A stretch of 33,948 nt of DNA, taken from positions 1 to 33,948 of the forward strand of contig CAYHOW010000002.1 in NCBI GenBank assembly GCA_964358335.1, given 5' to 3'. Made by a program: the position numbers and the translations under genes. How positions within the stretch are numbered: the first letter of the stretch is position 1; each line of letters begins with the position of its first letter. Of the stretch, positions 1 to 22,734 are shown in pieces. This stretch comes from Candidatus Woesearchaeota archaeon. Its GTDB lineage: Archaea; Nanobdellota; Nanobdellia; SCGC-AAA011-G17; GW2011-AR17. The notes under the pieces were generated by a model, which ran no database searches, was not told the DNA's origin, and worked only from the letters and a program-made list of their open reading frames with translations.

Positions 1-973
1 CATTATCTTTTGCTGTGCATAACAGGATGCCTATAGGCTCATTATCTTCATTTGTGTTAATTTCCTTCTTTACATAGTTAAGGTAGAAGTTCATCTGCCC
101 TGCATCTTCATGCTTGAATTTTGTCGTTTTCAATTCGATGACTACATAGCATCTAAGATAAATATTGTAGAATAATAAGTCGATATAGAAATGCTCATTG
201 TCGATGCTTATCCTTTTCTGCCTGGCGACAAAGCTGAACCCTTGCCCAAGCTCAAGCAGGAACTTCTGGAGATTGTCCAATATCCTGCTTTCCAGCTCCT
301 TTTCTGTATAGATGTTTTTCTCTTCAAGGCTTAGGAAGTCCAATATGTAAGGGTCTTTAATCAAATCCTCCGACCTTGTAGGGATGTTGCCCTTGCGCTC
401 ATATTCAACCAGCGTTTTTTTGTCCTTGCTCATCAATAATCTCTCATAATGGAGGGAATGGATCTGCCTTTTCAGGTCTCTGACGCTTAGGTTTTCGTTG
501 ATTGCGTACTTCTCGAAGTATTCTCTTTTTGCCTTGTCGTCAATCTTTATCAGCTCGCAATAATGCGACCAAGCCAATTTGGGAGACACTGTCTTCCATT
601 TCTGGTGCAATTCGCCAGTCACTGACTGGCGAATCTTGCCTTTATGGAATTCATCAGACAGTGTCTGATGAATCTTATCTGTATAGATTAGATAAAAAAG
701 GCGCATGTTTCTCAAGGCCGTTGAACTGAATCCTCTGCCGAATTCCTTAATCAGTTCCTTAGATATGGAATCTATCAACTGTTTCCCATATCCTGCCCGT
801 TTCTCGCCTTTCTGCTCCTCTTCGACAATTCTCTTGCCTATTTCATAATGTGCCTTGAGCATCTGTGCGTTGACTGCGCTGAACGCCCTGTGTCTAGCTG
901 TGCTGATTATTCTCTTTAGGTCAGAAACTAGATGCGCGAGCCTTTTGGTGTCTGGCATTAAGTCTGATTTCAT
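1..973 (-). CDS. DUF1016/YhcG family PD-(D/E)xK nuclease-domain protein (3' end runs off the window; not in ORF track)
   Basis: Manual translation from ATG at 973: MKSDLMPDTK...HYEIGKRIVEEEQKGEKRAGYGK...GRGFS...LAWSHYCEL...IKDPYILDFL...FLLELGQGFSFVARQKR...FYIDLLFYN...YVVIELK...AGQMNFYL...PIGILLC, all typical YhcG motifs. Confidence 0.93.
   Translation of the reverse strand, partial: MKSDLMPDTKRLAHLVSDLKRIISTARHRAFSAVNAQMLKAHYEIGKRIVEEEQKGEKRAGYGKQLIDSISKELIKEFGRGFSSTALRNMRLFYLIYTDKIHQTLSDEFHKGKIRQSVTGELHQKWKTVSPKLAWSHYCELIKIDDKAKREYFEKYAINENLSVRDLKRQIHSLHYERLLMSKDKKTLVEYERKGNIPTRSEDLIKDPYILDFLSLEEKNIYTEKELESRILDNLQKFLLELGQGFSFVARQKRISIDNEHFYIDLLFYNIYLRCYVVIELKTTKFKHEDAGQMNFYLNYVKKEINTNEDNEPIGILLCTAKDN
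577..673. repeat. Three tandem 25-bp palindromic units inside the DUF1016 gene
   Basis: 649-673 attcatcagaca-g-tgtctgatgaat (12/12 arm symmetry); 610-634 attcgccagtca-c-tgactggcgaat (12/12); 577-601 atttgggagaca-c-tgtcttccattt (9/12). Confidence 0.9.
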
Positions 974-3318: not shown

Positions 3319-6033
3319 ATGAATGAAGCGCAAACTAGGGAACAAGTTATTGATAAGCAGCTGAAAGCTAGGGGCTGGCTAAAGAGCTATATCAAGGAAG
3401 AAGTTAATGCAATTGGATCTAATTTCAAGGCTAAAGATTATGTCCTCTCTAAGGGCAGAGGTGATGATTCTGGAAGATTCATTGATTATCTGTTATTGGC
3501 TGAAGATAATTCTCCCCTTGCATTAATAGAAGCCAAAAAATCATCAGTTTCGGAAGAGAATGGAAGGATTCAGGCGAGGACGTATCTGAAAGACATTGAA
3601 AGTCAAACTGGAGAAAAGATACCTATTTTTTTGACGAATGGCAATAATTGGCTGTTAATCGACGAAGATGGCGAACGCCGCATCAGCGGGCCATTATCCC
3701 AGCCAGACCTGCAGAGAAGAATGGAGCTGCATAGGAAAAGAAGGGACCCTACAAAGATAAGCATTGAAAGGATTGTCAATCGCCCACGAAGCATCCTTGT
3801 AGTTAAGCAGTTAATGGAGCATATCCAAAAAGGGCATAGGTCAGCGTTAATCTCGATGGCAACTGGAACTGGTAAAACTAGGGTTGCCATGGCCATGATT
3901 GATGTTTTGCTTAGAGCGAACATTATCAGGAATGTCCTGTTTATTGCGGATAGGATAGCTTTGACCAATCAGGCCAAGTCTGCCGGGTTTCAGGAATTCT
4001 TCAGGTCAGAGGCAGTGATTGACTTGAGGGAAAATCCCGAAAGCTTCCCTAATGGGCTTTATGTCACTACGGTCCAGACCTTGAGGGTTCCAAAGAAGAA
4101 TAAGTTTTATGAGCATTTCAGCCCGGGCTTTTTTGACCTGATTATTTTCGATGAGGCCCATAGGTCAATCTATGATCCTAACAAGGAAGTTTACAGGTAT
4201 TTTGACGCAATCAAGATTGGATTGACCGCAACGCCGTCATCGGCCGAGGATAGGAACACGTTTGAATTGTTTGGCTGTAAAGGGAATAAGCCGACAATTG
4301 AATATTCTTATGAGGAAGCAATCAGGGATGGCGTGCTAGTGCCTTATAATGCACAAATCATTGACACAAAAGTATTATCTTTGGGCATTGAAGGTGCAAC
4401 ATTATCTAAGGAATTAAAAAGCCAACTAATAAGGCAAGAAGAAGATCCTCGATATACAATGCTTCCTGGATCTGCGTTTGCTAAAGTATTTATGGACGAT
4501 AAGACCAACGAGCTGATAGTCAGGGAATTCCTGAACAGATGCTATAAGTCCGACGAGGGAAAGCCAGCAAAGACCATCTTTTTTTGCGCTAATATCTCCC
4601 ATGCGAAGCGCATTAAGAAAATATTCGATAAGCTGGATCCTACGTTAGGCAATGATGTTCAGCCCATCGTCTCTGAAGATTACAGGTATACTGATGAGAT
4701 TGCAAGATTCAAGCTGGATTCAGAGCCGAGAATAGCATTGTCTGTTGGGGTTTTAGATACTGGCGTGGACATTCCAGAAGTGTGCAACCTGGTCTTTGCC
4801 AAGCCGGTATTTTCTGGAATTAGGTTCTGGCAGATGCTTGGAAGGGGGACAAGGAATCTAAGCGCGTGCAAGCATAAGGAATGGCTGCCGAATAGGGAGA
4901 AAAATGATTTCTTGATACTGGACTTCACTATTGGCGGGCATTCAAACGTCAAAGAGCATAACTTGAAAGAGGCGAAAGAGGCCAAGGTTGGGATAGATGC
5001 ATTGACAAGGATTTTCTTGAATCGGGTTGAGCTATTAAACAAGAGACTGGACCCTAAACAAAGGTCATTTATCGAGGATAAGATTATCGAGGAAGTCGAT
5101 GCGCTAAATAAGGACTCGTATATTGTCCGCGAGAAACTGCCCATAATCAGGAAATTGGTTTCTAGAAGGTTTGACCTGAAAGAATACCTTAAGGAATTAA
5201 AAAATGAGATTGCTCCCTTGATTTCGCTCAATCCCGGAAAAGATTCGCTGGTCACTTCGTTCATACTGCAGATTGAAAAGCTGTTCGCATCCATAATTGA
5301 TGAAGATAAGGAAAAAATATACAAAATAAGCCGGGAAGCCAGGGAGAAAATGGAAAATATCCTGCAGAAGGGCCATTTGGAGACTGTACAGCGCAAAAAA
5401 GAAAGCATAATGAGAGTATTCCATGATAAATTCTGGGACGAGCTGGCCTTTGAGGATGTCGAATTTATTATTAAGGAATTAGCCCCGCTAATGGTTTACT
5501 ATGAACAGAACCCTAAACGGCTTATCCAAATAGATGCGCCGGATTTAGTCTTGAAAGTGGAGGATTTCAAGAAGGAAGTCGTGGAAGACAAGGAATTAAA
5601 AAGGTTCGTTGAAACGAATCCCCTTATAAGGAAGATTAGGGATGGGGAAGGTGTGACTCCTGCTGAATTGCTTAAGCTTGAAGAGCAATTGCATGCGCTT
5701 AGGCCCGAGATAACCATTGACAATGTCCAAAGGATACGCAAGATTGACTTCCTGCTGTTTTTAAGGAACATATTGGGCCTGAAGCAGGAGTATGACCCGC
5801 AAGAATTGATTGAGAGGGAGTTTGACAAGCACATTATCGATAGAAATAAGGATTATAATTCCGAGCAGATAAAGTTCCTTCAGGTCCTGAAAAAAGTGTT
5901 TGCTAGGACTAAGCGCATAGAGTTGAAGGACTTCACGGTTCCGCCATTATCCAACGAAAGGCCGCTTGACAAGTTCCAGGCATCCGAGCTGCAGGAGATA
6001 GTGGTGAGGTGCAATAGGATAAAAATGAAATAG
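3319..6033 (+). CDS. hsdR: Type I restriction enzyme R subunit (EcoEI-like)
   Basis: IDYLL..IEAKK nuclease motif, MATGTGKT Walker A, DEAH, GLTATP, DTGVD, QMLGRGTR, EcoEI_R_C-like tail. Confidence 0.95.
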   Translation: MNEAQTREQVIDKQLKARGWLKSYIKEEVNAIGSNFKAKDYVLSKGRGDDSGRFIDYLLLAEDNSPLALIEAKKSSVSEENGRIQARTYLKDIESQTGEKIPIFLTNGNNWLLIDEDGERRISGPLSQPDLQRRMELHRKRRDPTKISIERIVNRPRSILVVKQLMEHIQKGHRSALISMATGTGKTRVAMAMIDVLLRANIIRNVLFIADRIALTNQAKSAGFQEFFRSEAVIDLRENPESFPNGLYVTTVQTLRVPKKNKFYEHFSPGFFDLIIFDEAHRSIYDPNKEVYRYFDAIKIGLTATPSSAEDRNTFELFGCKGNKPTIEYSYEEAIRDGVLVPYNAQIIDTKVLSLGIEGATLSKELKSQLIRQEEDPRYTMLPGSAFAKVFMDDKTNELIVREFLNRCYKSDEGKPAKTIFFCANISHAKRIKKIFDKLDPTLGNDVQPIVSEDYRYTDEIARFKLDSEPRIALSVGVLDTGVDIPEVCNLVFAKPVFSGIRFWQMLGRGTRNLSACKHKEWLPNREKNDFLILDFTIGGHSNVKEHNLKEAKEAKVGIDALTRIFLNRVELLNKRLDPKQRSFIEDKIIEEVDALNKDSYIVREKLPIIRKLVSRRFDLKEYLKELKNEIAPLISLNPGKDSLVTSFILQIEKLFASIIDEDKEKIYKISREAREKMENILQKGHLETVQRKKESIMRVFHDKFWDELAFEDVEFIIKELAPLMVYYEQNPKRLIQIDAPDLVLKVEDFKKEVVEDKELKRFVETNPLIRKIRDGEGVTPAELLKLEEQLHALRPEITIDNVQRIRKIDFLLFLRNILGLKQEYDPQELIEREFDKHIIDRNKDYNSEQIKFLQVLKKVFARTKRIELKDFTVPPLSNERPLDKFQASELQEIVVRCNRIKMK

Positions 6034-6499: not shown

Positions 6500-7110
6500 G
6501 CTTAGAAACAAATTTTTTTATTAATAATTGGGCATTCATTATCCCTATAATTTTATCAATAATTGCAATTGTTTTCACTGCATTTAAAGATTTCATACTC
6601 CCTTGGTTTTTTAAGCCAGAATTAGAGATAACTTATGGCAAAAAAGAACCATATAATAGACAGGTACCTATTATTGAATCTAATTCAGTAAATGTAGGTT
6701 TTTTTTATAGATTTAAAATAAGAAATATTGGCAAAAAAACGGCAAAAAATTGCAGATGCCAAGTTTACTCTATCAAAAATAAAAGAGGCAACGAATTGGA
6801 TTTACAGGGATTTCCTCTTAAATGGGTCAGTAGGCCAGACTCAAAAGAAAGGTTAAATATTTCACACGGAGAAAGCGAATTTGTAGACTTAGCAAATACA
6901 CGTATAGATAGTGTAGGATATTTTTATTTAGAACCATATCATAATGTGCCTATTGGAATGAATAATCAAGTTTCCCTTGACTATTATGCTCTGAAAATAA
7001 TCATAAGCGGAGACAATTTTAAGCCGTATTTTGCAACCTTTAGAATAAATGGGCAACCAAAGGAAAAACATATTTTAGAAATGTTCTTAAAAAGTGTGGC
7101 GAGAAAATGA
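6496..7110 (+). CDS. Hypothetical protein with N-terminal transmembrane helix
   Basis: WAFIIPIILSIIAIVFTAF hydrophobic segment, then beta-rich domain (IRNIGKKTAKNC); ATGA overlaps at both ends; AT-rich. Confidence 0.75.
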   Translation: MSLETNFFINNWAFIIPIILSIIAIVFTAFKDFILPWFFKPELEITYGKKEPYNRQVPIIESNSVNVGFFYRFKIRNIGKKTAKNCRCQVYSIKNKRGNELDLQGFPLKWVSRPDSKERLNISHGESEFVDLANTRIDSVGYFYLEPYHNVPIGMNNQVSLDYYALKIIISGDNFKPYFATFRINGQPKEKHILEMFLKSVARK

Positions 7111-8312
7111 AAGCTAAAAATCTACCAGAAGGATGGAAGAAAGTTGAACTTTGGAATCAAGAATATTTTACTATTTTATCTAGCGGCATAGATAAATTTA
7201 AAGGAGAAAAAGAATATTTATCAACCGAGTCAGTTAAAGGAACTAAGATTGAGAAAATTGAATCCATAATAACTTATAAAGATAGGCCCTCAAGAGCAAA
7301 TATGCAACCTGTCCTAAATTCGGTCTGGTTTGCAAAAATGCAAGCAACTTTAAAGGTTTATTCTTTTGATGAAGAAAACAAAGATGAAATAGGGCGATAT
7401 GTTTTATCTACTGGTTTTGCAGGAATTAAAGTAAATGAAACTCTTGTTTCACCCAAATATTTAAGATTAATCCTAACATCTCAAGATTTTAATGAACTTA
7501 AAGATAAGCTTTGTACTGGTTCAACACAAAGAGGAATAAATAATCAATCAATTGAAACGATATCTTTGGTTATCCCCCCACTCTCAACCCAGCAAAGAAT
7601 CGTCTCAATCTTGGAAAAAGCAGAGCAGACGAAAGAAATGCGGAAAGAGGCAGACGAATTGACAAAAGACTTATTGAAAGCTGTCTTTATGGAGATGTTT
7701 GGAAATGTTGCTAAAAATAATAAAAAATGGCAAACTATGCAAGCAGAAGAACTATTTGATATGAAACTAGGGAAAATGCTTTCAGCGGCAAATTATACTG
7801 GGAAATACTTAAAACCCTATTTAAGAAATATTAATGTTCAATGGAATTATTTAGATTTATCAGATGTTAAAAAAATGGATTTTAATTCTGAAGACTTTAA
7901 ACGGTATGAACTTAAAAAAGGAGACATACTAGTATGTGAAGGCGGAGAAGTTGGAAGAACAGCAATATACAATGGAGAAATTCCTAATTGCTGTTATCAG
8001 AATGCATTGCATAGATTAAGAATCAAAAACCAAAGTGTTAATCCTTTTTATTTTATTTATTATATGATCTTTGCTGCAGAATATGGATTACTTAAACAAA
8101 GCACTATACAAGTAACTATAGCACATTTCACGGCTGAAAAATTTAAAAGATTAAAAATTATGTGTCCACCTCTTCCTCTCCAAGATAAATTCGCCTCAAT
8201 AGTCAAAGAAGTTGAATCAATGAAAGAGCAGCAGAAGCATTCAAAAGAGCATATTGACAATATGTTTGATGCTTTAATGCAGAAGGCATTTAAGGGGGAA
8301 ATTCATGCCTGA
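7107..8312 (+). CDS. hsdS: Type I R-M specificity subunit
   Basis: LPEGW start, two TRDs, PPLSTQQRIV and PPLPLQDKFA conserved regions, QKAFKGEI end. Confidence 0.95.
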   Translation: MKAKNLPEGWKKVELWNQEYFTILSSGIDKFKGEKEYLSTESVKGTKIEKIESIITYKDRPSRANMQPVLNSVWFAKMQATLKVYSFDEENKDEIGRYVLSTGFAGIKVNETLVSPKYLRLILTSQDFNELKDKLCTGSTQRGINNQSIETISLVIPPLSTQQRIVSILEKAEQTKEMRKEADELTKDLLKAVFMEMFGNVAKNNKKWQTMQAEELFDMKLGKMLSAANYTGKYLKPYLRNINVQWNYLDLSDVKKMDFNSEDFKRYELKKGDILVCEGGEVGRTAIYNGEIPNCCYQNALHRLRIKNQSVNPFYFIYYMIFAAEYGLLKQSTIQVTIAHFTAEKFKRLKIMCPPLPLQDKFASIVKEVESMKEQQKHSKEHIDNMFDALMQKAFKGEIHA

Positions 8313-10317
8313 AGATAATAAAAAACAAAGTAATCATTTAATTTCTATCGGAACAGATGGGGCTAAGAAGGTTCTTCATAGATATGATTATAAGAAGGCA
8401 ATTACCGAGTTTATTTGGAATGGTTTTGATGCTGGAGCAACCATAGTTAAAGTAAGTCTAAAACTTAATGATATTGGGATACTCAAAGAAATTATTATTG
8501 AAGATAATGGCAGTGGGATTGTTCATTCCGAACTTAATGACAAATTTAAGCCATTTTATGAATCAATCAAGGAAGATGAAGAGTATGAATCACATTCATC
8601 AAAATGTCATGGACGTAATGGATTAGGCAGACTTACATTTTTCACGTTCGCAAACTTTGCTGAATGGATAACAACTTATCAAAATAGAGATAAAAAATAC
8701 TGTTATTCTATATCTATCAAAGCTAATGAATTGAAAATATTTGAAAATTGCACTCCAAAGGAAGTAACGCAGAAGTCAATAGGAACAATCGTAAAGTTTA
8801 CAGGGATATTATCGTTTATGAACAATAAAGATATCATTGAGGAAATCATAAATTACTTGAAAGAAGAATTTTGCTGGTATCTTGAATTGAATTCCAATAG
8901 AGGAAGTAAAATAATTTTAAACGACAAAGAATTAGCTCATGATTCTAACATTAGAGAAACTGAAGAAAAAGACCTAAATATTCAGGATGTGAAGTTCAAG
9001 TTACATTATGTTGGATGGAAAAAACTACACAAAAGTGAGTTGTCAAAAATCTATTATCTTAAAGAAGAGAAAGATGAAACCTACAAGGAGTTTACACAAC
9101 TAAACCGCAAGAGTGATGGTTTTTTTCATAGTGTTTATGTCTCTAGTGTTTATTTTGATAGCTTTAAGTTTGAATCATCAAAAAATCAGTCAACATTGGG
9201 TGTAAAAGGCAAATCTGATAAGATTTTTAGATTATTGCTTGAGCAAATTAGAGATTTTCTCCTAATTAAAAGAAAACCGATTTTAAAAGAAAATTCAAAA
9301 GAATTCTTCAAAACAAACTATGAAAAAGAAGGCATCGTCACTTCTAAAGGAAAAGTTGGTCTTGAAAAATATAAAGCACAAGAAGTAAAAACTGCTATTG
9401 AAGAGATTTGGATAATTGAGCCAAAAATATTTAGTGGCTTGAATCATGAACAAAAAAAAGTAATGGCCAATTTTATTGAATTATCTCTGGACACTGGTGA
9501 GAGAGATAGGCTGATTGACATTATTGACAAGATTGTAAAATTGCAGCCGGCTGAAAGAGAACAATTGTATAATATATTTAAAGATGCAGAATTGTCATAT
9601 ATAATACGAATGTTGAACATGCTAACTACACGATTCAAAAACGTTGAGTGGTTAAAGCAAATAATTTTGAGGCAGGAACTTAATGCGAAGGAAGTTGCTC
9701 ATGTCCAAGGCATGATCGAAAAAATGACTTGGTTTTTTGGAGAGCAGTATGCAATGCTTGGCTCCGTTGAAGATAACTTTGAGAAGTTGTTAAAAAATTA
9801 TCTTATAAACCAAGATGATTTTTCGGAAATAACTCCTATGGCTGATCAAAACAAGAAGAAAGAAGTTGACTTGTTCTTATGCCGGAAAATGATAGACTCC
9901 AATTCGGTTGATAACTTAATCGTTGAATTGAAGAGACCATCTGTAAAATTAGGAAAAAAGCAAATTGAACAAATCGAAACATATATGCTTACTATTCTAA
10001 AAGAACCGCAATTTAACAATGTGTCAAATGCGACATGGACTTTTATTTTAGTTGGGACACATTTTGATACTGATGGCTACACAGAAAGTAGAATTGCGAG
10101 CCTGAAAAATCAAGGTATAAACGGATTAATTTTGCAAGACAAGAATTATAAGATTATTGTAAAAAAGTGGAGTGATTTGATGACTGATTTTGAAATACAA
10201 CATAATTTCCTACAGACAGAATTAAAATTAAATAGAGATAAGCTAGTCGCAAAAGAAAATAATGCAGATGAAATTATTAAAAAAGCGACTTTTGGACAAT
10301 ATTGGACAGATAAATGA
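8305..10317 (+). CDS. GHKL (HATPase_c_3/MORC-like) ATPase fused to a C-terminal PD-(D/E)xK-like nuclease
   Basis: EFIWNGFDAGA (N box), IEDNGSGI (G1), GRNGLGRL (G2), GTIV; C-terminal EVDLFL...IVELKRP...QIETY. Confidence 0.8.
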   Translation: MPEDNKKQSNHLISIGTDGAKKVLHRYDYKKAITEFIWNGFDAGATIVKVSLKLNDIGILKEIIIEDNGSGIVHSELNDKFKPFYESIKEDEEYESHSSKCHGRNGLGRLTFFTFANFAEWITTYQNRDKKYCYSISIKANELKIFENCTPKEVTQKSIGTIVKFTGILSFMNNKDIIEEIINYLKEEFCWYLELNSNRGSKIILNDKELAHDSNIRETEEKDLNIQDVKFKLHYVGWKKLHKSELSKIYYLKEEKDETYKEFTQLNRKSDGFFHSVYVSSVYFDSFKFESSKNQSTLGVKGKSDKIFRLLLEQIRDFLLIKRKPILKENSKEFFKTNYEKEGIVTSKGKVGLEKYKAQEVKTAIEEIWIIEPKIFSGLNHEQKKVMANFIELSLDTGERDRLIDIIDKIVKLQPAEREQLYNIFKDAELSYIIRMLNMLTTRFKNVEWLKQIILRQELNAKEVAHVQGMIEKMTWFFGEQYAMLGSVEDNFEKLLKNYLINQDDFSEITPMADQNKKKEVDLFLCRKMIDSNSVDNLIVELKRPSVKLGKKQIEQIETYMLTILKEPQFNNVSNATWTFILVGTHFDTDGYTESRIASLKNQGINGLILQDKNYKIIVKKWSDLMTDFEIQHNFLQTELKLNRDKLVAKENNADEIIKKATFGQYWTDK

Positions 10318-10326
10318 GGTGCTACA

Positions 10327-10385
10327 ATGCTAAACTCACAAACCAAAATCAAGAATAAGAAGACTTTTAGAGGTGAACTAATATG
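10327..10385 (+). repeat. Spacer A: hsdM 5' stub + hsdS 3'-like stub
   Basis: atgctaaactcacaaaccaaaatcaagaat resembles 14221-14249; followed by aag aag act ttt aga ggt gaa cta (KKTFRGEL). Confidence 0.7.
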
Positions 10386-10640
10386 GGCGAAGAGCACTCC
10401 ATAAAATTATTCGAAAGCAAGAAAGTTAGGGTTCAATGGGTTGAGGAAGATCAAAAGTGGTACTTTTCAATAATAGACGTAATAGCCATACTTACAGATA
10501 GCCCCAATCCAAGGAAGTATTGGAGCGTCCTTAAAACTAGGCTAAAGGCAGAAGGAAGCCAGTTGGCTACAAATTGTAGTCAACTGAAAATGGAGTCCTT
10601 AGATAGAAGATAAGCCAACAAAAAAGAAGGTAAGCTAAAA
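10383..10640 (+). pseudogene. Internally deleted Bro-N gene (5' part plus last ~24 bp)
   Basis: 76-aa ORF (10383-10613) closely similar to the N-terminus of 11577-12455; 10617-10640 matches 11499-11522 at 23/24 nt. Confidence 0.8.
10560..10586. repeat. 27-bp Bro-N palindrome, copy 1
   Basis: cagttggctaca-aat-tgtagtcaactg, 11/12 symmetric. Confidence 0.85.
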
Positions 10641-10686
10641 ATGCCGTACTCAGAAATAAAATCAATAAAAAGGAGGCGAACTCATG
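10641..10686 (+). repeat. Spacer B: degenerate hsdM 5' stub + short hsdS 3'-like stub
   Basis: atgccgtactcagaaataaaatcaa (MPYSEIKS vs MLDSELKS) then ggc gaa ctc atg (GEL). Confidence 0.6.
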
Positions 10687-11520
10687 GATGAAAATAATGC
10701 GCTCGTGGTATTTCAAACCAAAAAGATAAGAAGGGCCTGGCACAATAATGAATGGTATTTCTCTGTTGTTGATGTGGTTGAGGCTCTAACCGACAGCCCA
10801 AGCCCAAGGCAGTATTGGGGCGTATTAAAGGGGAGGGAAAGTCAGTTGTTAACATTTTGTTTACAACTGAAATTGCTTTCGGCAGATGGCAAATATTATG
10901 CTTCAGACTGCGCTAATACCAAGAATATATTTAGGATCATTCAATCTATTCCATCCCCTAAAGCTGAGCCCTTCAAGCAATGGCTGGCCCAAGTGGGTTA
11001 TGAGCGAGTTCAAGAAATAGAAAATCCCGAGTTAGCCACAAAGCGCATGAAAGAGATATATAAGGCAAAAGGCTATTCAGAAGATTGGATTGAGAAAAGA
11101 GTAAGGGGCATAGCTGTAAGGGATGAATTAACCGATGAATGGAAAAAACGAGGAGTACAAGAAGAAAGAGAATTCGCAATCTTAACTGCTGAAATATCTA
11201 AAGCAACATTTGGGATGACTCCTGGCGAATATCAACAGTTCAAGGGATTAAAAAAAGAAAACCTAAGGGACCATATGAACGATTTAGAATTGATATTTTC
11301 CATGCTTGGCGAAAGGGCTACTACAGAGATAGCCAGAACAAAGGATACGCTGGGGTTTGTAGAAAATAAGAATGCCGCCATCAAAGGCGGGAATATTGCA
11401 GGAGAGGCGCGAAATAAACTTGAGGTTGAAACAAAAAGAAAGGTAATTAGCCCTGAAAATTATCTTGATGCTCCAGAAAAAGAGAAAAGAAAGCAAATAA
11501 CAAAAAAGAAGGTAAACTAA
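10684..11520 (+). CDS. Bro-N domain DNA-binding protein (antirepressor-like)
   Basis: FQTKKIRRAW...WYFSVVDVV..LTDS...RIIQSIPSPKAEPFKQWLA...NLRDHM. Confidence 0.88.
   Translation: MDENNALVVFQTKKIRRAWHNNEWYFSVVDVVEALTDSPSPRQYWGVLKGRESQLLTFCLQLKLLSADGKYYASDCANTKNIFRIIQSIPSPKAEPFKQWLAQVGYERVQEIENPELATKRMKEIYKAKGYSEDWIEKRVRGIAVRDELTDEWKKRGVQEEREFAILTAEISKATFGMTPGEYQQFKGLKKENLRDHMNDLELIFSMLGERATTEIARTKDTLGFVENKNAAIKGGNIAGEARNKLEVETKRKVISPENYLDAPEKEKRKQITKKKVN
10843..10869. repeat. 27-bp Bro-N palindrome, copy 2
   Basis: cagttgttaaca-ttt-tgtttacaactg, 11/12 symmetric. Confidence 0.85.
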
Positions 11521-11521
11521 A

Positions 11522-11579
11522 ATGCTAGACTCAGAACTGAAATCAAAAATAAGAAGCCTTTCAAAGGTGAACTAACATG
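11522..11579 (+). repeat. Spacer C: hsdM 5' stub + hsdS 3'-like stub
   Basis: atgctagactcagaactgaaatcaaaaat (MLDSELKSKI, same peptide as the HsdM start) then aag aag cct ttc aaa ggt gaa cta aca tga (KKPFKGELT*). Confidence 0.85.
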
Positions 11580-12455
11580 AACAAAGAGCACTCCATAAAA
11601 TTATTCGAAAACAAAAATGTAAGGGTTGAATGGAACCCAGCAGAGGAAAAGTGGTACTTCTCAATAGTTGACGTAATAGCTATACTTACAGATAGCCCCA
11701 ATCCAAACAATTATTGGAAAGTGCTGAAATTCAGGCTGAAAAATGAGGGAAATGAGTCGGTTACAAAATGTAACCAACTGAAACTGCAGTCATCAGACGG
11801 AAAATTTTATCTCACAGATGTCGGCGATACAGAGCAAATCCTAAGATTAGTGCAGTCAATACCTTCAAAGAAAGCAGAGCCGTTCAAGGCATGGCTGGCG
11901 AAGGTAGGCAACGAGAGGATAAATGAGACGTACGACCCCGAGCTTGCATTCGACAGGGCGATGAAGACATACCTCCAAAAAGGGTATTCAAAAGAGTGGA
12001 TAAACCAGAGATTAAAGACAATTGAAGTAAGGAAAGAGCTTACAGACGAATGGAACAGGGCGGGGATAGAAAAAGACTCAGACTTTGCCATTCTCACTAA
12101 CGAGATCACCAAGGCGTGGTCTGGCAAGACAGTAGCTGAATACAAGCAGCTGAAGAACCTTAAGAAGGAAAATCTCCGGGACAACATGACTAATATGGAG
12201 CTTGTCTTGAATATGCTTGCGGAAGCCACAACATCTGAAATATCAAAGAATGAGAGCCCTTCGCAATTTGAAGAAAGCAGGAATATAGCTATCAGGGGAG
12301 GGACTGTTGCGGGAAACACAAGGAAAGAGATTGAGAGGCAGCTTGGAAAAACCATAATCAGCCCGAAAAACGCAAAAGATAACATGCTGGAATTATCCAA
12401 GGAAGATAAATTGGGTATTGAACATAAGCCCAAAACGAAAAGGAAGGATGACTAA
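11577..12455 (+). CDS. Bro-N domain DNA-binding protein (paralog of 10684-11520)
   Basis: WYFSIVDVIAILTDS...RLVQSIPSKKAEPFKAWLA...NLRDNM. Confidence 0.88.
   Translation: MNKEHSIKLFENKNVRVEWNPAEEKWYFSIVDVIAILTDSPNPNNYWKVLKFRLKNEGNESVTKCNQLKLQSSDGKFYLTDVGDTEQILRLVQSIPSKKAEPFKAWLAKVGNERINETYDPELAFDRAMKTYLQKGYSKEWINQRLKTIEVRKELTDEWNRAGIEKDSDFAILTNEITKAWSGKTVAEYKQLKNLKKENLRDNMTNMELVLNMLAEATTSEISKNESPSQFEESRNIAIRGGTVAGNTRKEIERQLGKTIISPKNAKDNMLELSKEDKLGIEHKPKTKRKDD
11754..11780. repeat. 27-bp Bro-N palindrome, copy 3
   Basis: gagtcggttaca-aaa-tgtaaccaactg, 10/12 symmetric. Confidence 0.8.
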
Positions 12456-12456
12456 A

Positions 12457-12678
12457 ATGCTAGACTCGGAACTGAAATCAAAAATTAACCTGTTCTGGAA
12501 CAAATTCTGGAGCGGTGGAATCTCAAACCCTCTCCATGAGATAGAGCAGATGTCTTATTTGATCTTCATGAAAGGACTAGAAGATGAGGATGTCGCAAGA
12601 GAGCAGAACGCCAAATTAAAGGAGGAAGGTTTTGAGTTGTACGATAAAATCGTACAGCTGAAATTAGTGAGGGCATAG
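12457..12678 (+). pseudogene. Truncated hsdM 5' copy (54 codons) fused in frame to an internal Bro-N fragment
   Basis: 50/54 aa identical to the start of HsdM 14221, then KEEGFELYDKIVQLKL, which aligns with Bro-N KAEGSQLATNCSQLKM / KNEGNESVTKCNQLKL. Confidence 0.85.
12634..12660. repeat. 27-bp Bro-N palindrome, copy 4
   Basis: gagttgtacgat-aaa-atcgtacagctg, 10/12 symmetric. Confidence 0.8.
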
Positions 12679-12683
12679 CCAAC

Positions 12684-12698
12684 CGAAACTTTTATAAA
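12684..12698 (+). promoter_or_regulatory. Putative BRE/TATA promoter of the MNT-HEPN operon
   Basis: cgaaact-tttataaa about 30 nt before ATG 12730. Confidence 0.5.
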
Positions 12699-12729
12699 TG
12701 ATACTAAACTAGTACCAATTGATACCAAA

Positions 12730-13323
12730 ATGGAAACAAGAATAAAGATTATCGATGCATTGGACAAAAACAAGAAAGGGGTCCATATTCGCGAGCTTGC
12801 AAGACTTGTAGAAACCAGCTATAATAATACCGTCAGGAATATAAAAATACTTGAAAAAGAAAATGCCATCAGAAAAGAAAAAGAGGCAAACCTAATCAAA
12901 ATAAGGCTGAAAAATAGCCTGATGACAGTCGCCTACTTAAAGCAGGCGCATACTGAAAACTTCTTAAAATTGCCGAAAAAGATAATTATGGCAATAACTG
13001 AATTTCTTAATGAATTACAGGAAAAGCCGCTAATCGCACTTATTTTTGGCTCATTTGCCAAAGGAAGCTATGGCTCCGGCTCAGATATTGACATATTGCT
13101 TGTCTTTCAAAAAATAATCAATCAGAATGATATTGAAAATACTGCAAAAAGGATAAGCATGAGAACAAACACTCGGCTAAGCCCTGTGTATGTGGATTAT
13201 GAAAGCTTTCAAAAAAACTTCTTAAGCAAGGATCATGCTTTCTCAAATGAAATCAGGCAGAATGTAATCATTTTTACAGGAATAGAGCATTATTACCGCC
13301 TTTCGTGGGAGTTTTTAGAATGA
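12730..13323 (+). CDS. wHTH + minimal nucleotidyltransferase (MNT) antitoxin
   Basis: N-terminal HIRELARLV HTH; IFGSFAKG...SDIDILLV pol-beta NTase motif. Confidence 0.88.
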   Translation: METRIKIIDALDKNKKGVHIRELARLVETSYNNTVRNIKILEKENAIRKEKEANLIKIRLKNSLMTVAYLKQAHTENFLKLPKKIIMAITEFLNELQEKPLIALIFGSFAKGSYGSGSDIDILLVFQKIINQNDIENTAKRISMRTNTRLSPVYVDYESFQKNFLSKDHAFSNEIRQNVIIFTGIEHYYRLSWEFLE

Positions 13324-13877: not shown

Positions 13878-14221
13878 ATATTTTCAAAATAGAATATTAC
13901 TGGCCTGAGGATGAGCATGGCGAGACTTTGCTTGGAAAAGATATAGAGCAAAAGGAATTTGAACAGGACTTGATAAAAGCAAAAGAATTTGCAGAAAGCC
14001 TTATCGGAAAAGAGATTAAAGAGGGAGAATATTTGGGCAAAGGATATAGAATTGATTGCTTGCCGGAATATTATGAGCAAATTATTTGGTTTCTCGTTGA
14101 AAAATTAGGGTATATTAAATGTGGGTTTGATAATAACATTAGTTATAATATAGATGATTCTTATGGTAAAAAGATATCAATAAGCAAATCAGAAAAAAAG
14201 ATCAAAAGGAGTGAAATCTAA
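13874..14221 (+). CDS. Hypothetical protein
   Basis: 115 aa, translationally coupled at both ends. Confidence 0.65.
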   Translation: MNIFKIEYYWPEDEHGETLLGKDIEQKEFEQDLIKAKEFAESLIGKEIKEGEYLGKGYRIDCLPEYYEQIIWFLVEKLGYIKCGFDNNISYNIDDSYGKKISISKSEKKIKRSEI

Positions 14222-15696
14222 TGCTGGACTCGGAACTAAAATCAAAAATCAACCTGTTATGGAACAAATTCTGGAGCGGCGGCATCTCAAACCCTCTCCA
14301 GGCAATAGAGCAGATGTCTTATTTGATCTTCATGAAGCAGCTGGAAGATGAGGATGTTGCAAGAGAGCAGAACGCAAAACTCTTGGGGAATAGGCATGTA
14401 TCCATTTTCAAGGGGAATGAAGGCTGCAAATGGTCTAAATGGACAGAAATGCCCGCAGAGCCGATGCTAGAGCACGTAAGGGATAAGGTATTCCCTTTCT
14501 TAAGGAAGTTAAACGGCGGAGAGAAATCCATCTATAACAAGTACATGAAAAACGCCTCTTTCTCAATACCCACTGCATCACTATTGGCAGAAGCTGTAAA
14601 GATAATCAATGACATGCACATTAAGGAGCAGAACAGGGATACCAAGGGGGACCTCTACGAATATCTTCTAGGCCAGCTGGCAACCGCAGGAAAGAACGGC
14701 CAATTCAGGACCCCAAGGCATATAATCAAAATGATGGTCGAGCTCTTAAACCCTAAATACGGGGATAAGGTCTGCGATCCAGCTTGCGGAACAGCAGGCT
14801 TTTTAGTTTCCGCCTTTGAGCATATCCTAAAGAGCAATACCTCTTCCGACCTGGTAAGGGAAGGAAACTTTGCAGGGGACAAGCTCAATGAAAACCAGTG
14901 GAGAATATTAAGGGATGAAACCCTTTACGGCTATGATTTTGACGAAGTCATGCTTAAAATCTCTTTGATGAACTTGATGATGCACGGGATTAACAACCCG
15001 AACGTTGACCAAAAGAATACATTGTCAAAAAGGTTTGACGAGGCAAACTGCTATGATGTAATCTTAGCAAACCCCCCATTCAAAGGGAGCATCGACGAGT
15101 CCGAAATAGGGGAAAACTTCAGGACACAGACCAAGAAGACAGAGCTGTTATTCCTGGAATTAATGTACAATCTGCTGACAAACAGCGGGAGATGCATCGT
15201 TATTGTTCCAGACGGGGTCTTATTCGGGAATTCAAAAGCGCATAAGAATATAAGGGAACTGTTGCTGGAAAAATGCAGGCTAGATGCCGTCATATCAATG
15301 CCCTCGGGCGTATTCAAGCCATATGCTGGGGTATCTACTGCGGTCCTTCACTTTACCAAAGGGGAGCCGACAAAAGAAGTCTGGTTCTATGGCATGGAAG
15401 CGGATGGATTCAGCCTGGATGACAAAAGAACAGAGCAGGCGGATAGAAATGACATCCCTGACATAATTGAAAGGTTCAGGAATAGGCATAAGGAAAAGCC
15501 GACAGACAGGAAGAAAAAATGCTTCCTTGTGCCTGTCAAGGAAATCAAGGGCAACAATTATGACCTGAGCATCTCTAAGTACAAGGAAATAGAGTATGAG
15601 GAAGTGAAGTACGAGAAGCCGGAATTAATCAAAAAGAAGATACTGGAGCTGGAAGCCAATATTATTGAGCAATTGAAGGGATTGAAGATTGCTTGA
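14221..15696 (+). CDS. hsdM: Type I R-M N6-adenine methyltransferase subunit
   Basis: FWSGGISNPL, GQFRTPRHII, DPACGTAGF (motif I), NPPF (motif IV), VPDGVLFG. Confidence 0.96.
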   Translation: MLDSELKSKINLLWNKFWSGGISNPLQAIEQMSYLIFMKQLEDEDVAREQNAKLLGNRHVSIFKGNEGCKWSKWTEMPAEPMLEHVRDKVFPFLRKLNGGEKSIYNKYMKNASFSIPTASLLAEAVKIINDMHIKEQNRDTKGDLYEYLLGQLATAGKNGQFRTPRHIIKMMVELLNPKYGDKVCDPACGTAGFLVSAFEHILKSNTSSDLVREGNFAGDKLNENQWRILRDETLYGYDFDEVMLKISLMNLMMHGINNPNVDQKNTLSKRFDEANCYDVILANPPFKGSIDESEIGENFRTQTKKTELLFLELMYNLLTNSGRCIVIVPDGVLFGNSKAHKNIRELLLEKCRLDAVISMPSGVFKPYAGVSTAVLHFTKGEPTKEVWFYGMEADGFSLDDKRTEQADRNDIPDIIERFRNRHKEKPTDRKKKCFLVPVKEIKGNNYDLSISKYKEIEYEEVKYEKPELIKKKILELEANIIEQLKGLKIA

Positions 15697-21243: not shown

Positions 21244-22734
21244 ATGGCATTATCGACAAAAGACAGGCACAAGCTGAAGAAGTTTATAAGGACTTTGGAG
21301 GCCATAAGGGGAAGGCACACGGAGCTGGTTAGCGTGTACGTCCCTGCCGGATATGACATGAACAAGATAATAGGCCATCTGTCCCAGGAGCAGGGCACCG
21401 CCGAAAATATAAAGGACAAGACCACAAGGACCCATGTCATAGACTCATTGGAGAGGATGATAAGGCACTTGAGGCTGTTCAAGCAGACGCCGAAGAACGG
21501 CTTGGTCGCTTTTTCCGGCGACGCTTCTGACAAGGAAGGCAGGCCCGACATCCAGGTATGGAGCATCGAGCCTCCGGAGCCGATAAACATCAGGCTTTAC
21601 AGGTGCGACCAGACGTTCATACTCGACCATCTTAAATCCATGATGGATGTGAAGGAAGTCTATGGGCTGATAGTCGTCGACAGGAGGGAAGGCAACATAG
21701 GATACCTGAAGGGCACGCAGATACAGGAAGTCGCCTCTATGACTTCCGGCGTCCCCGGCAAGACAAGGGCCGGAGGCCAGTGCATGCATCCCGACACCGC
21801 CGTGACTTTGGCTGACGGCCAGTACGTGAGGATAGCCGAGCTGATGGAAGGCGACGACGTGATGAGCTACGATTTCGCTACCAAAGAGTTCGTGCCTTCT
21901 AAAGTCAAGAAGGTCTGGACGACTACTAAGGACAAGCTTTACACAATCAAGACATTGGAAGACGAGCTGCAGTGCTCGGCCGACCATATGCTATTCCTAT
22001 CTGACGGCATGGAAGTCGCCGCCGAGAATCTCAAGAAGGACATGCTTCTCATAGACGAGAACGGAAATCCGAAGAAAGTTGTTTCTGTGGCTGCCGAAGA
22101 CAGGCATCTTGATTTGGTAGACATAGAGGTGGAGAAGGGCAACTTCATTGCCGAAGGCATTGTCGTCCACAACAGCGCCCAGAGGTTTGCCAGGCTGAGG
22201 CAGGAAGCGGCGAAGGAGTTCTTCAGGAGGATCTCTGAGGTCGCGCAGAAGGAGTTCTTGGGCAAGAAGGAACTGAAGGGGATACTGCTTGGCGGGCCCG
22301 GGCCGACTAAGGAGATATACCTGGCGACAGGCGAGCTGAACAACGAACTGAAATTGAAAATCATAACCATCCAGGACCTTAGCTACACGGGCGAGTTCGG
22401 GCTGAGGGAACTGGTCGAGAAGAGCAGGGAGGCGTTGGCTAAGGAAGCGATAACTGAAGAGAAGGATATAATGGAGAAGTTCTTCAAGGGATTGGCCACA
22501 AGCTCGAACATGGTGGCGTACGGCAAGAAAGAGGTCGAGAAGGCTATGGAGCTGAAGGCTGTCGACTGCTTGCTTCTTTCTGAAGATTTGGATCCTGACT
22601 ATTCCGAGGCTATGGAAGCCAAGGCCGACGACATGGGCACTAAGGTCCAGATAATCTCCGTCGACACGCCTGAAGGCATGCAATTAAGAGATTTGGGTGG
22701 CATCGCCGCGTTCTTAAGGTATCCGCTGGAGTAG
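21244..22734 (+). CDS. prf1: Peptide chain release factor aRF1, intein-containing
   Basis: GRHTELVSVYVP, AENIKD (NIKS-like), YRCD, GGQ/SAQRFARLR, GGPGPTK, LGGIAAFLRY. Confidence 0.96.
   Translation: MALSTKDRHKLKKFIRTLEAIRGRHTELVSVYVPAGYDMNKIIGHLSQEQGTAENIKDKTTRTHVIDSLERMIRHLRLFKQTPKNGLVAFSGDASDKEGRPDIQVWSIEPPEPINIRLYRCDQTFILDHLKSMMDVKEVYGLIVVDRREGNIGYLKGTQIQEVASMTSGVPGKTRAGGQCMHPDTAVTLADGQYVRIAELMEGDDVMSYDFATKEFVPSKVKKVWTTTKDKLYTIKTLEDELQCSADHMLFLSDGMEVAAENLKKDMLLIDENGNPKKVVSVAAEDRHLDLVDIEVEKGNFIAEGIVVHNSAQRFARLRQEAAKEFFRRISEVAQKEFLGKKELKGILLGGPGPTKEIYLATGELNNELKLKIITIQDLSYTGEFGLRELVEKSREALAKEAITEEKDIMEKFFKGLATSSNMVAYGKKEVEKAMELKAVDCLLLSEDLDPDYSEAMEAKADDMGTKVQIISVDTPEGMQLRDLGGIAAFLRYPLE
21781..22173 (+). 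mobile_element. Mini-intein (131 aa, no homing endonuclease) inserted after GGQ
   Basis: Starts C(MHPDT), block B SADH, ends VDIEV...NFIAEGIVVHN followed by S+1; removal restores GGQSAQRF. Confidence 0.93.

Follow-up and report, generated by a model that had tools for sequence, protein, structure and literature searches.

The Bro-N gene array of a Candidatus Woesearchaeota archaeon lies in a stretch of 33,948 nucleotides (nt) at the start of contig CAYHOW010000002.1 (assembly GCA_964358335.1), which was analysed at its full length and is referred to below as the window. The array contains four short palindromes, each with two 12-nt arms around a 3-nt spacer (12-3-12), which we interpret as copies of one old dyad element situated in the predicted loop codons of the Bro-N-type DNA-binding domain; we show here that it exists at the level of DNA and that its arms co-evolve. 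The dyad recurs at the same structural place across the superfamily, with other sequences and even in another reading frame. The four palindromes were first reported in an initial annotation made from the letters of the window alone, and direct reading and a count of the pairs bore out their positions, their peptides (Table 1), and the AAA that follows each of them; the longer 3' context is AAA(A/C/T)TG or AAATTA in the window, and it is AAAATG in 61 of the 80 homologs described below. Folded as single-stranded DNA, palindromes 1 to 4 have energies of −9.3, −9.0, −5.3, and −8.2 kcal/mol (z = −5.1, −3.9, −3.8, and −5.6, respectively), and none of them has the GC-rich hairpin and T-run of an intrinsic terminator. 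The window contains seven 12-3-12 palindromes with at least 10 of 12 pairs, as compared to 1.74 ± 1.18 (maximum 5) in 100 dinucleotide shuffles, and four of the seven fall within the 2.1-kb Bro-N stretch. Across the entire genome, such palindromes are as frequent as expected by chance (65 in 1,269,027 bases, or 0.051 per kb), with at least 17 of the 65 belonging to three covarying families (Bro-N, 6; YhcG type, 5; ORF6N type, 6). Separately, contigs from three sequencing runs end at 11754, the first base of palindrome 3, and look like assembly breaks at the palindrome.

Bro-N membership was judged by Pfam PF02498, whose curated cut-off of 25.6 bits is exceeded by copy 2 (40.1 bits) and copy 3 (29.6 bits); copy 1, at 76 residues, has no Pfam match and aligns to residues 1-113 of copy 3 with 48% identity. 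The initial annotation had described four Bro-N sequences, which stands for copies 1 to 3, but copy 4 is no Bro-N gene and consists mostly of an hsdM fragment with a Bro-N remnant of ~44 nt. Copies 2 and 3 also match, over their full length, the model of the phage-defence candidate family PDC-S13 (PDLC04920; E = 1.9e-120 for copy 2 and 4e-131 for copy 3, positions 1-276 of 286), for which no test of defence function was found in the literature, and they match phrog_15286. Against the DinD equivalog model (NCBIfam NF008573, cut-off 242 bits) they reach only 28.7 and 18.7 bits, and in the C-terminal part only; judged by these matches, copies 2 and 3 are distant relatives of DinD and not DinD itself.

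The evidence for co-evolving arms comes from the best 80 of 589 PDC-S13 relatives, sampled from many bacterial phyla and archaea, with proteins 57-81% identical and with the 27-nt segment located by anchoring on an invariant Q-L-K. The segment is palindromic at all 80 loci (12 of 12 pairs in 9, 11 in 27, 10 in 30, 9 in 13, and 8 in 1; mean 10.375). Re-encoding the same peptides with the codon usage of the family yields 6.46 ± 0.14 pairs (maximum 6.9 in 2000 runs), and these genes offer 20,784 other in-frame windows, of which none reaches 10 of 12 and 8 reach 9. The coupling between the arms is apparent in synonymous positions: Leu2 and Gln8 are encoded by TTG-CAA in 26 cases and CTG-CAG in 12, as compared to a single TTG-CAG and no CTG-CAA, and codon 1 ends in an A or G that is matched by the T or C with which codon 9 begins in all 79 rows starting with Glu or Gln, a match that the sole Arg-first row (AGG-CTG) likewise obeys. 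It is equally apparent in the residues, as mirrored residues obey a reverse-complement rule (GTT Val with AAC Asn, GTG Val with CAC His, TCC Ser with GGA Gly, etc.), and where codon 3 encodes Val its third base dictates residue 7 with zero exceptions (GTT-Asn, 29; GTG-His, 18; GTC-Asp, 1; GTA-Tyr, 1). In a pair count over 84 sequences, 87.9% of cells were paired, whereas shuffling gave 62.6 ± 0.9% and sliding the partner gave 19-38%, and 254 cells had changed on both sides, as compared to 77 ± 10 in shuffles, figures that are not to be taken as probabilities because the sequences are kin. The symmetry persists while both the bases and the encoded residues change, and it is thus the DNA itself that is preserved. 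The proposal in the initial annotation that symmetry is maintained at the nucleic-acid level is therefore strongly supported, since both excess symmetry and covariation were found against nulls in which codon usage was controlled. Two other candidates were rejected. A recombinant origin of the mixed outer arms seen in some sequences (GAAACG...CAGTTG) is disfavored by the upstream peptide motifs, which favor point mutation, and a frameshift signal is disfavored by the lack of a slippery heptamer at a fixed distance in the contexts inspected and of any in DinD-like genes, although no formal scan was made.

Covariation is the classic signature of RNA structure, and an mRNA hairpin that controls how these genes, which are often toxic or under tight regulation, are translated or processed, or how stable their message is, would have a stable stem of 10-12 bp closed by a loop of 3-5 nt; moreover, 4 of 5 Ala-Ser pairs are encoded as GCT...AGT, which forms a G-U pair on the sense strand. 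However, there is no overall excess of wobble. Among mismatches outside pair 1 (n = 80), those of the antisense type (C-A or A-C, 20) outnumber those of the sense type (G-T or T-G, 12). The symmetry also reaches into the would-be loop: in DinD-like genes, 10 of 20 centres are fully self-complementary, and a hairpin could not pair such central bases, while 8 of 9 Asp-Val centres in these genes are GAC-GTC. Loop inversions were found between otherwise equal palindromes (reference loci are denoted by L and contigs of the genome by C), with TTT in L025 as compared to AAA in L054 and GTT in L011 as compared to AAC in L013, these two being the only clear cases among 10 close pairs that differ at all three loop bases. 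Furthermore, untranslated remnants retain the palindrome, as do intergenic orphans, which occur in either orientation, and no covariance model of Rfam 15 matched positions 10000-13000 of the window at E values up to 1. Pairing through the dyad centre, together with G-T not being favored, identifies a DNA-level feature rather than an mRNA fold and points to an element that acts in the DNA duplex or in replication intermediates; an mRNA hairpin is, in our estimation, improbable.

The initial annotation had called for the peptide to be mapped on a predicted structure, and in an AlphaFold model of copy 3 it occupies a loop between helix 43-56 and strand 66-71, with residues 60-65 predicted to form the loop and residues 66-68 to begin the strand. 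The model (mean predicted local distance difference test score 88.4) was built from 75 aligned sequences, L061 and L078 of the 77 references being omitted because their starts looked wrong. The nine palindrome residues are somewhat more variable than average (1.38 as compared to 1.03 bits, rank 55 of 243 windows). For the model as a whole, the only significant fold match is to DdrC, a DNA-damage response protein of Deinococcus that binds DNA as a dimer (E = 1.9e-5 to 1.9e-4, template modelling [TM] scores 0.34-0.52), and even the best match (E = 1.9e-5) has TM scores of only 0.40 and 0.51. A family-profile sequence search of solved structures yielded no match at E values up to 1. The fold match hints that PDC-S13 and DinD-like proteins may be DdrC-like dimeric DNA binders, which we regard as a lead and not as a finding.

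The same structural place carries a dyad well beyond PDC-S13. PDC-S04 proteins have only the N-terminal domain in common with PDC-S13, and all 13 genes have a palindrome at the same codons with another core (GTTAGT...ACTACC; 9-10 of 12 pairs). We surveyed 85 Pfam Bro-N hits with a locus, drawn from three bacterial phyla and a few other genomes, for hairpins of at least 9 of 10 pairs. Hairpins were present in 19 of 21 DinD-like genes, centred at Pfam positions 54-58; 24 of the 32 KAEPFK-type genes had one, which in 22 cases had its centre at positions 50-54; among classical phage-type Bro-N genes the count was 11 of 32, as compared to 1.45 expected, and all 11 were at positions 40-52. The dinD gene of Escherichia coli K-12 has such an element in its codons HFEEILDM (CATTTCGAGG-agat-CCTCGATATG, 9 of 10 pairs), and in one subclade the same ACAATTTGT centre is found in another reading frame, where it encodes the peptide GQFVT. 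Among Bacteroidota genes with an ORF6N domain, 28 of 30 have a covarying hairpin with 8 or more of 9 pairs; as read from the sequence rows, it follows immediately on the FMFQLT helix, and a count anchored by a regular expression caught 12 of the hairpins with 0.5 expected. In ORF6N genes of the archaeon's own genome (PF10543), a palindrome encodes the conserved L-R-S-Q-I/F-V-T-S motif (e.g., AGGTCACAA-T-TTGTGACCT), the place at which the Bacteroidota genes have theirs; these palindromes are at C22:1201/1273, C27:1609/1681, and C148:171/527, sometimes two per gene. A further case is a YhcG/DUF1016 gene encoding a PDDEXK nuclease (open reading frame [ORF] 2..973, minus strand), at the left end of the window. 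Its two 12-3-12 palindromes (609-635 and 648-674) are spaced by 39 nt; their outer arms (AATTC...GAATC) are conserved, whereas their cores covary, and this 39-nt spacing recurs in a paralog on contig C15 that has three. Of the 42 strong hairpins that could be mapped in 30 Bacteroidota homologs of this gene, 25 are located at the same residues, 100-119, and many homologs align to the query only from residue ~124-133, just past the palindromes.

Copies also occur outside of genes. Viral contigs were scanned by exact pattern and the flanks aligned to Bro-N references; a site was taken to be in a gene when the score was 90 or more, and it was set aside when it lay within 150 nt of a locus end. The DinD 24-mer was found at 11 sites in Bro-N genes and at 58 orphan sites (8 set aside). 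The other types were less numerous, with 1 site in a gene and 4 orphans for VT.CN palindromes, 7 and 3 for SE.IG, and 9 and 0 for AT.CS (none set aside), and 4 and 1 for ET..GL (1 set aside); an ORF6N-type 21-mer had 12 sites in genes and 11 orphans. The orphans are exact units of 21-27 nt that are intergenic, lie in either orientation, and occur in unrelated phage contexts with flanks that have no homology, and two complete 32-kb phage records carrying an orphan have no Bro-N match. In one phage group (L241, L252, L282, and ~25 related viral loci), four to five different DinD-type palindromes (CATTTT-N4-ACGT-N4-AAAATG and variants; for example, L252:9560-9760) form a tandem array with a pitch of ~36 nt. 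The array directly follows a lysis cassette of the endolysin type and has a reverse-transcriptase gene nearby; both strands are open across it, and it might be an origin, a packaging site, or an operator array.

Such identical, sharp-ended units in many unrelated phage contexts, in arrays, and beside hairpins are what might be expected of a tiny mobile palindromic element (REP/RPE-like) that sits in frame in the loop, is repeatedly replaced, and also lands between genes, and a unit of 27 nt, equal to nine codons, would fit in frame. We nevertheless doubt this explanation strongly. The type of palindrome in PDC-S13 genes tracks the flanking protein sequence, which argues for vertical descent, and not one of the best 80 of 589 homologs is without the segment. 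In addition, units with these flanks are found in the archaeon's own genome (1.27 Mb) only in Bro-N genes or their remnants, which is not the dispersal seen with REP/REPIN elements (RAYT genes were not searched for).

In this genome the palindrome is kept even where the gene is not, as the initial annotation had claimed. Homology is lost ~20 nt beyond the palindrome in copy 1 and ~8 nt beyond it in copy 4, so the broken copies do end soon after the palindrome. The ORF that contains copy 4 (12418-12678) is an N-terminal fragment of hsdM, with HsdM_N as its only domain match, joined to the Bro-N remnant (~12625-12668), and Bro-N contigs of other organisms align to the window from 12625 onward. 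The remnant is of the ...EEGFEL..KI.QLKL subtype, an intact gene of which is present on contig C110. That gene is one of three further Bro-N pieces with a palindrome in the genome; the second, on C4, is truncated and ends just past its palindrome (9 of 12 pairs by hand count), and the third, on C150, is decayed, having four stops and a palindrome that still has 10 of 12 pairs. Dead copies elsewhere also keep theirs (L209, with three stops, at 10 of 12, and L210).

Because exact units recur free-standing and in arrays, we favor, from sequence comparisons and at somewhat less than an even chance, the reading that the dyad is a cis-acting DNA site that is kept symmetric by arm-to-arm copying and is read by a dimeric protein. 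After a mutation in one arm, template switching linked to replication, on either the folded or the opposite arm, would copy the change across or revert it, and selection at the level of the peptide would then filter the outcomes in a tolerant loop. The dyad would be read as a symmetric duplex or as an extruded hairpin by a dimeric protein, most plausibly the Bro-N-type protein itself or a partner, and reading by a protein would explain both the free single units and the arrays in phage genomes. In this archaeal locus the dyad may also mark rearrangement breakpoints, which would account for the origin of palindrome-only remnants such as copy 4. Two suggestions of the initial annotation bear on this reading. 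An intragenic operator that co-varies with its protein may be at work, as the identical free units in phages would suggest, but the rarity of a second copy near cellular genes (3 of 80 and 0 of 54 loci; see below) and the palindromes of the same style in the unrelated YhcG genes speak against it. A template-switch hotspot fits the upkeep of the arms, given the two loop inversions and the pairing through the centre, but nothing shows the diversification of the peptide that had been part of this suggestion.

Several observations weigh against a cis-acting site. In some lineages the outer pairs have decayed, down to 9 of 12, and close homologs (60-80% protein identity) carry quite different palindromes, which is hard to reconcile with a single sequence-specific reader. 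There is no second copy within 1.5 kb of the cellular genes at 77 of 80 PDC-S13 loci and at 54 of 54 others, and the best second match to a gene's own palindrome in the 1.5-kb flanks is no better than the control (mean 16.4 as compared to 16.2 of 27). Among the three exceptions, L061 has a second gene copy and not a free site, L063 has one palindrome-only remnant 50 nt downstream of the gene, and L011 has two palindrome-only Bro-N remnants of different types, head to tail at 1363-1420, 315 nt upstream of an intact PDC-S13 gene. Several ORF6N-type orphans resemble plain intrinsic terminators, having an A-run before and a T-run after. YhcG/DUF1016 genes, which are unrelated to Bro-N, have covarying coding palindromes of this kind as well, so that the phenomenon does not depend on Bro-N binding and its cause may be a general one, possibly mutational. 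Finally, truncated Bacteroidota copies break at residues 88-197, away from the palindrome, so that the palindrome-adjacent breakpoints observed here (copy 1, copy 4, and the C4 copy) are a feature of this genome, and breakage at the palindrome as a general rule was rejected.

Template switching alone has been proposed to keep inverted repeats perfect, as set out in two studies (Lavi et al. 2018, PMC5941160; Monttinen and Loytynoja 2022, PMC8794818), and this too weighs against a site that is read by a protein. The dyad would then be a functionless, self-perpetuating quasi-palindrome, in which an ancestral inverted repeat lies in a tolerant loop, template switching outpaces point mutation, selection acts on the peptide only, and the orphans are debris. 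We consider this unlikely on balance, though it deserves to be taken seriously, as it is compatible with the pairing through the dyad centre without preference for G-T, the two loop inversions, the retention of the palindrome in dead copies (C150, L209, and L210), its patchy loss in phage-type Bro-N genes (21 of 32 without a strong hairpin), the YhcG palindromes, the breakpoints beside palindromes in this genome, and the cellular genes without nearby second sites. It does not readily accommodate the exact units in unrelated phage contexts, in complete phages that lack Bro-N, and in regular arrays, as decayed debris should have drifted. Nor does it accommodate the persistence of a strong hairpin in nearly all DinD-like and ORF6N genes and in most KAEPFK-type genes although synonymous sites are saturated, or the terminal pair, which is left uncorrected although a synonymous CTC would pair.

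The Bro-N array is hosted by a type I restriction-modification (R-M) operon (Table 1). The Bro-N genes and a block with a nucleotidyltransferase (MNT) and a HEPN-like ORF entered the 5' end of hsdM, and the target was duplicated, over 160 nt in the case of the block and over ~30 nt in the case of each Bro-N cassette. A copy of the hsdM start of ~30 nt lies downstream of every Bro-N cassette, a weaker one at ~10327-10355 was spotted by eye, and the 160-nt direct repeat flanks a 1.6-kb block comprising the Bro-N remnant, the MNT gene, the HEPN-like ORF, and orf115. As a result of target duplication upon insertion, hsdM remains intact. These borders are of the kind described as insertion with long target duplication for R-M-linked genes, and they concern the ends of the cassettes and not the internal palindrome. 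At other PDC-S13 loci, strong direct flank repeats were found in 7 of 75, as compared to 1 with an inverted repeat, and at L029 the flank duplication consists of 68 nt of the hsdM 3' end. PDC-S13 homologs are otherwise solitary among unrelated genes, placed between pairs of housekeeping genes at many loci and among R-M or other defence genes at others.

Table 1. Palindromes, Bro-N copies, and neighboring features in the window.
Feature	Position	Strand	Remarks
Palindrome 1, CAGTTGGCTACA AAT TGTAGTCAACTG, codons QLATNCSQL of truncated copy 1	10560..10586		11/12 pairs
Palindrome 2, codons QLLTFCLQL of copy 2	10843..10869		11/12 pairs
Palindrome 3, codons ESVTKCNQL (residues 60-68) of copy 3	11754..11780		10/12 pairs
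Palindrome 4, 12-3-12 core 12634-12660, arms reach 15 nt (TTT...AAA)	12631..12663		10/12 pairs; in orphan Bro-N remnant of ~44 nt
hsdR	3319-6033		Type I R-M operon hosting the Bro-N array; domain scan
hsdS	7107-8312		Type I R-M operon hosting the Bro-N array; domain scan
GHKL-type ATPase	8305-10317		Within R-M operon region; domain scan
Bro-N copy 1, truncated, 76 aa	10383..10613	+	DNA 78% identical to copy 3 over 271 nt, leader included
Bro-N copy 2, 278 aa	10684..11520	+	PADLOC candidate family PDC-S13
Bro-N copy 3, 292 aa	11577..12455	+	PDC-S13
~30-nt copy of hsdM start (ATGCTAGACTCAGAACTGAAATCAAAAAT)	11519..11556	+	Further copies at 10638-10675, 12454-12491, 14218-14255
Duplicated 5' end of hsdM, 160 nt	12456..12615	+	90% identical to 14220-14379; left copy of long direct repeat
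Nucleotidyltransferase (MNT)	12730-13323		HEPN-like partner ORF alongside
Intact hsdM of type I R-M operon	14221..15696	+	Domain scan

The arrangement of the locus bears on a third suggestion of the initial annotation, that of an attC-like folded recombination site that moves Bro-N cassettes. The attC sites of integrons are imperfect palindromes of 57-141 nt with R''/L''...L'/R' boxes, located at the 3' end of a cassette and acting beside an IntI integrase. The Bro-N array is indeed cassette-like, with a copy of the hsdM start after each unit, and the conserved outer arms around a covarying core are reminiscent of such a site. However, the Bro-N palindromes are 27 nt long, have no R or L boxes, and lie within the reading frame, ~180 nt from the start of the gene, rather than at the end of a cassette. 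It is the hsdM-start repeats and the long target duplications that form the actual borders; no integrase was found among the 25 window ORFs scanned, and homologs sit alone between housekeeping genes. The suggestion did not hold up, and we regard it as exceedingly improbable. Elsewhere in the window, the aRF1 release-factor gene (21244-22734; eRF1_1-3 domains), which is in keeping with an archaeal origin of the window, has an intein, with Intein_splicing and Hint matches between eRF1 domains 1 and 2.

The inverted repeats described in PMC5941160 and PMC8794818 resemble the Bro-N element in their excess conservation, in arms corrected toward complementarity, and in compensatory and multi-base changes. 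Those cases are exact repeats among close proteobacteria, or RNA genes, whereas the Bro-N element is one coding site across a domain superfamily of bacteria, archaea, and phages, with turnover of its sequence, a reverse-complement amino-acid rule, and identical free copies. Among published cases, the coding palindromes of Nematomorpha mitochondria (2019, PMC6649704) come closest; they are likewise perfect or near-perfect inverted repeats within working protein genes and likewise represent a compromise between peptide and DNA structure. They are many and long (up to 284 bp) and belong to the mitochondrial genome of one lineage, whereas the Bro-N element is one short unit at a fixed place in a horizontally spreading family. 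No paper on a coding palindrome in Bro-N, ORF6N, or dinD was found in the literature, supplements not being covered.

A more specific proposal, which we put forward as a rather improbable one, is that Bro-N and ORF6N genes carry their own cognate DNA site in the codons of the DNA-reading loop, such that reader and site would form one co-evolving unit that recombination cannot separate, and that the free copies and arrays in phages would be the sites acted on by antirepressors, DinD-like proteins, and PDC-S13-type candidates. The O protein of phage lambda, with the ori iterons inside gene O, would be alike in that a DNA-binding protein and a DNA site travel in one reading frame, with the Bro-N site being a candidate for this. 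It differs in that the candidate site in Bro-N is in the loop codons of the DNA-binding domain itself and varies from one close homolog to another.

Bro-N and ORF6N rank with the commonest domains of phages, large DNA viruses, and defence islands. For annotators, the element illustrates that covariation inside a gene need not signify RNA structure. If the dyad is functionless, it would be an unusually clean natural case of a palindrome steering the choice of residues, as the third base of a Val codon sets Asn, His, Asp, or Tyr four residues on, and template switching would have preserved the structure for a very long time. A functional dyad would provide the entire superfamily with a candidate binding site or structural signal. 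The element is present even in dinD of E. coli K-12 and is open to direct bench work. The cognate-site proposal, if true, would provide a first handle on what a very common viral domain binds, together with a natural catalogue of protein-site pairs.

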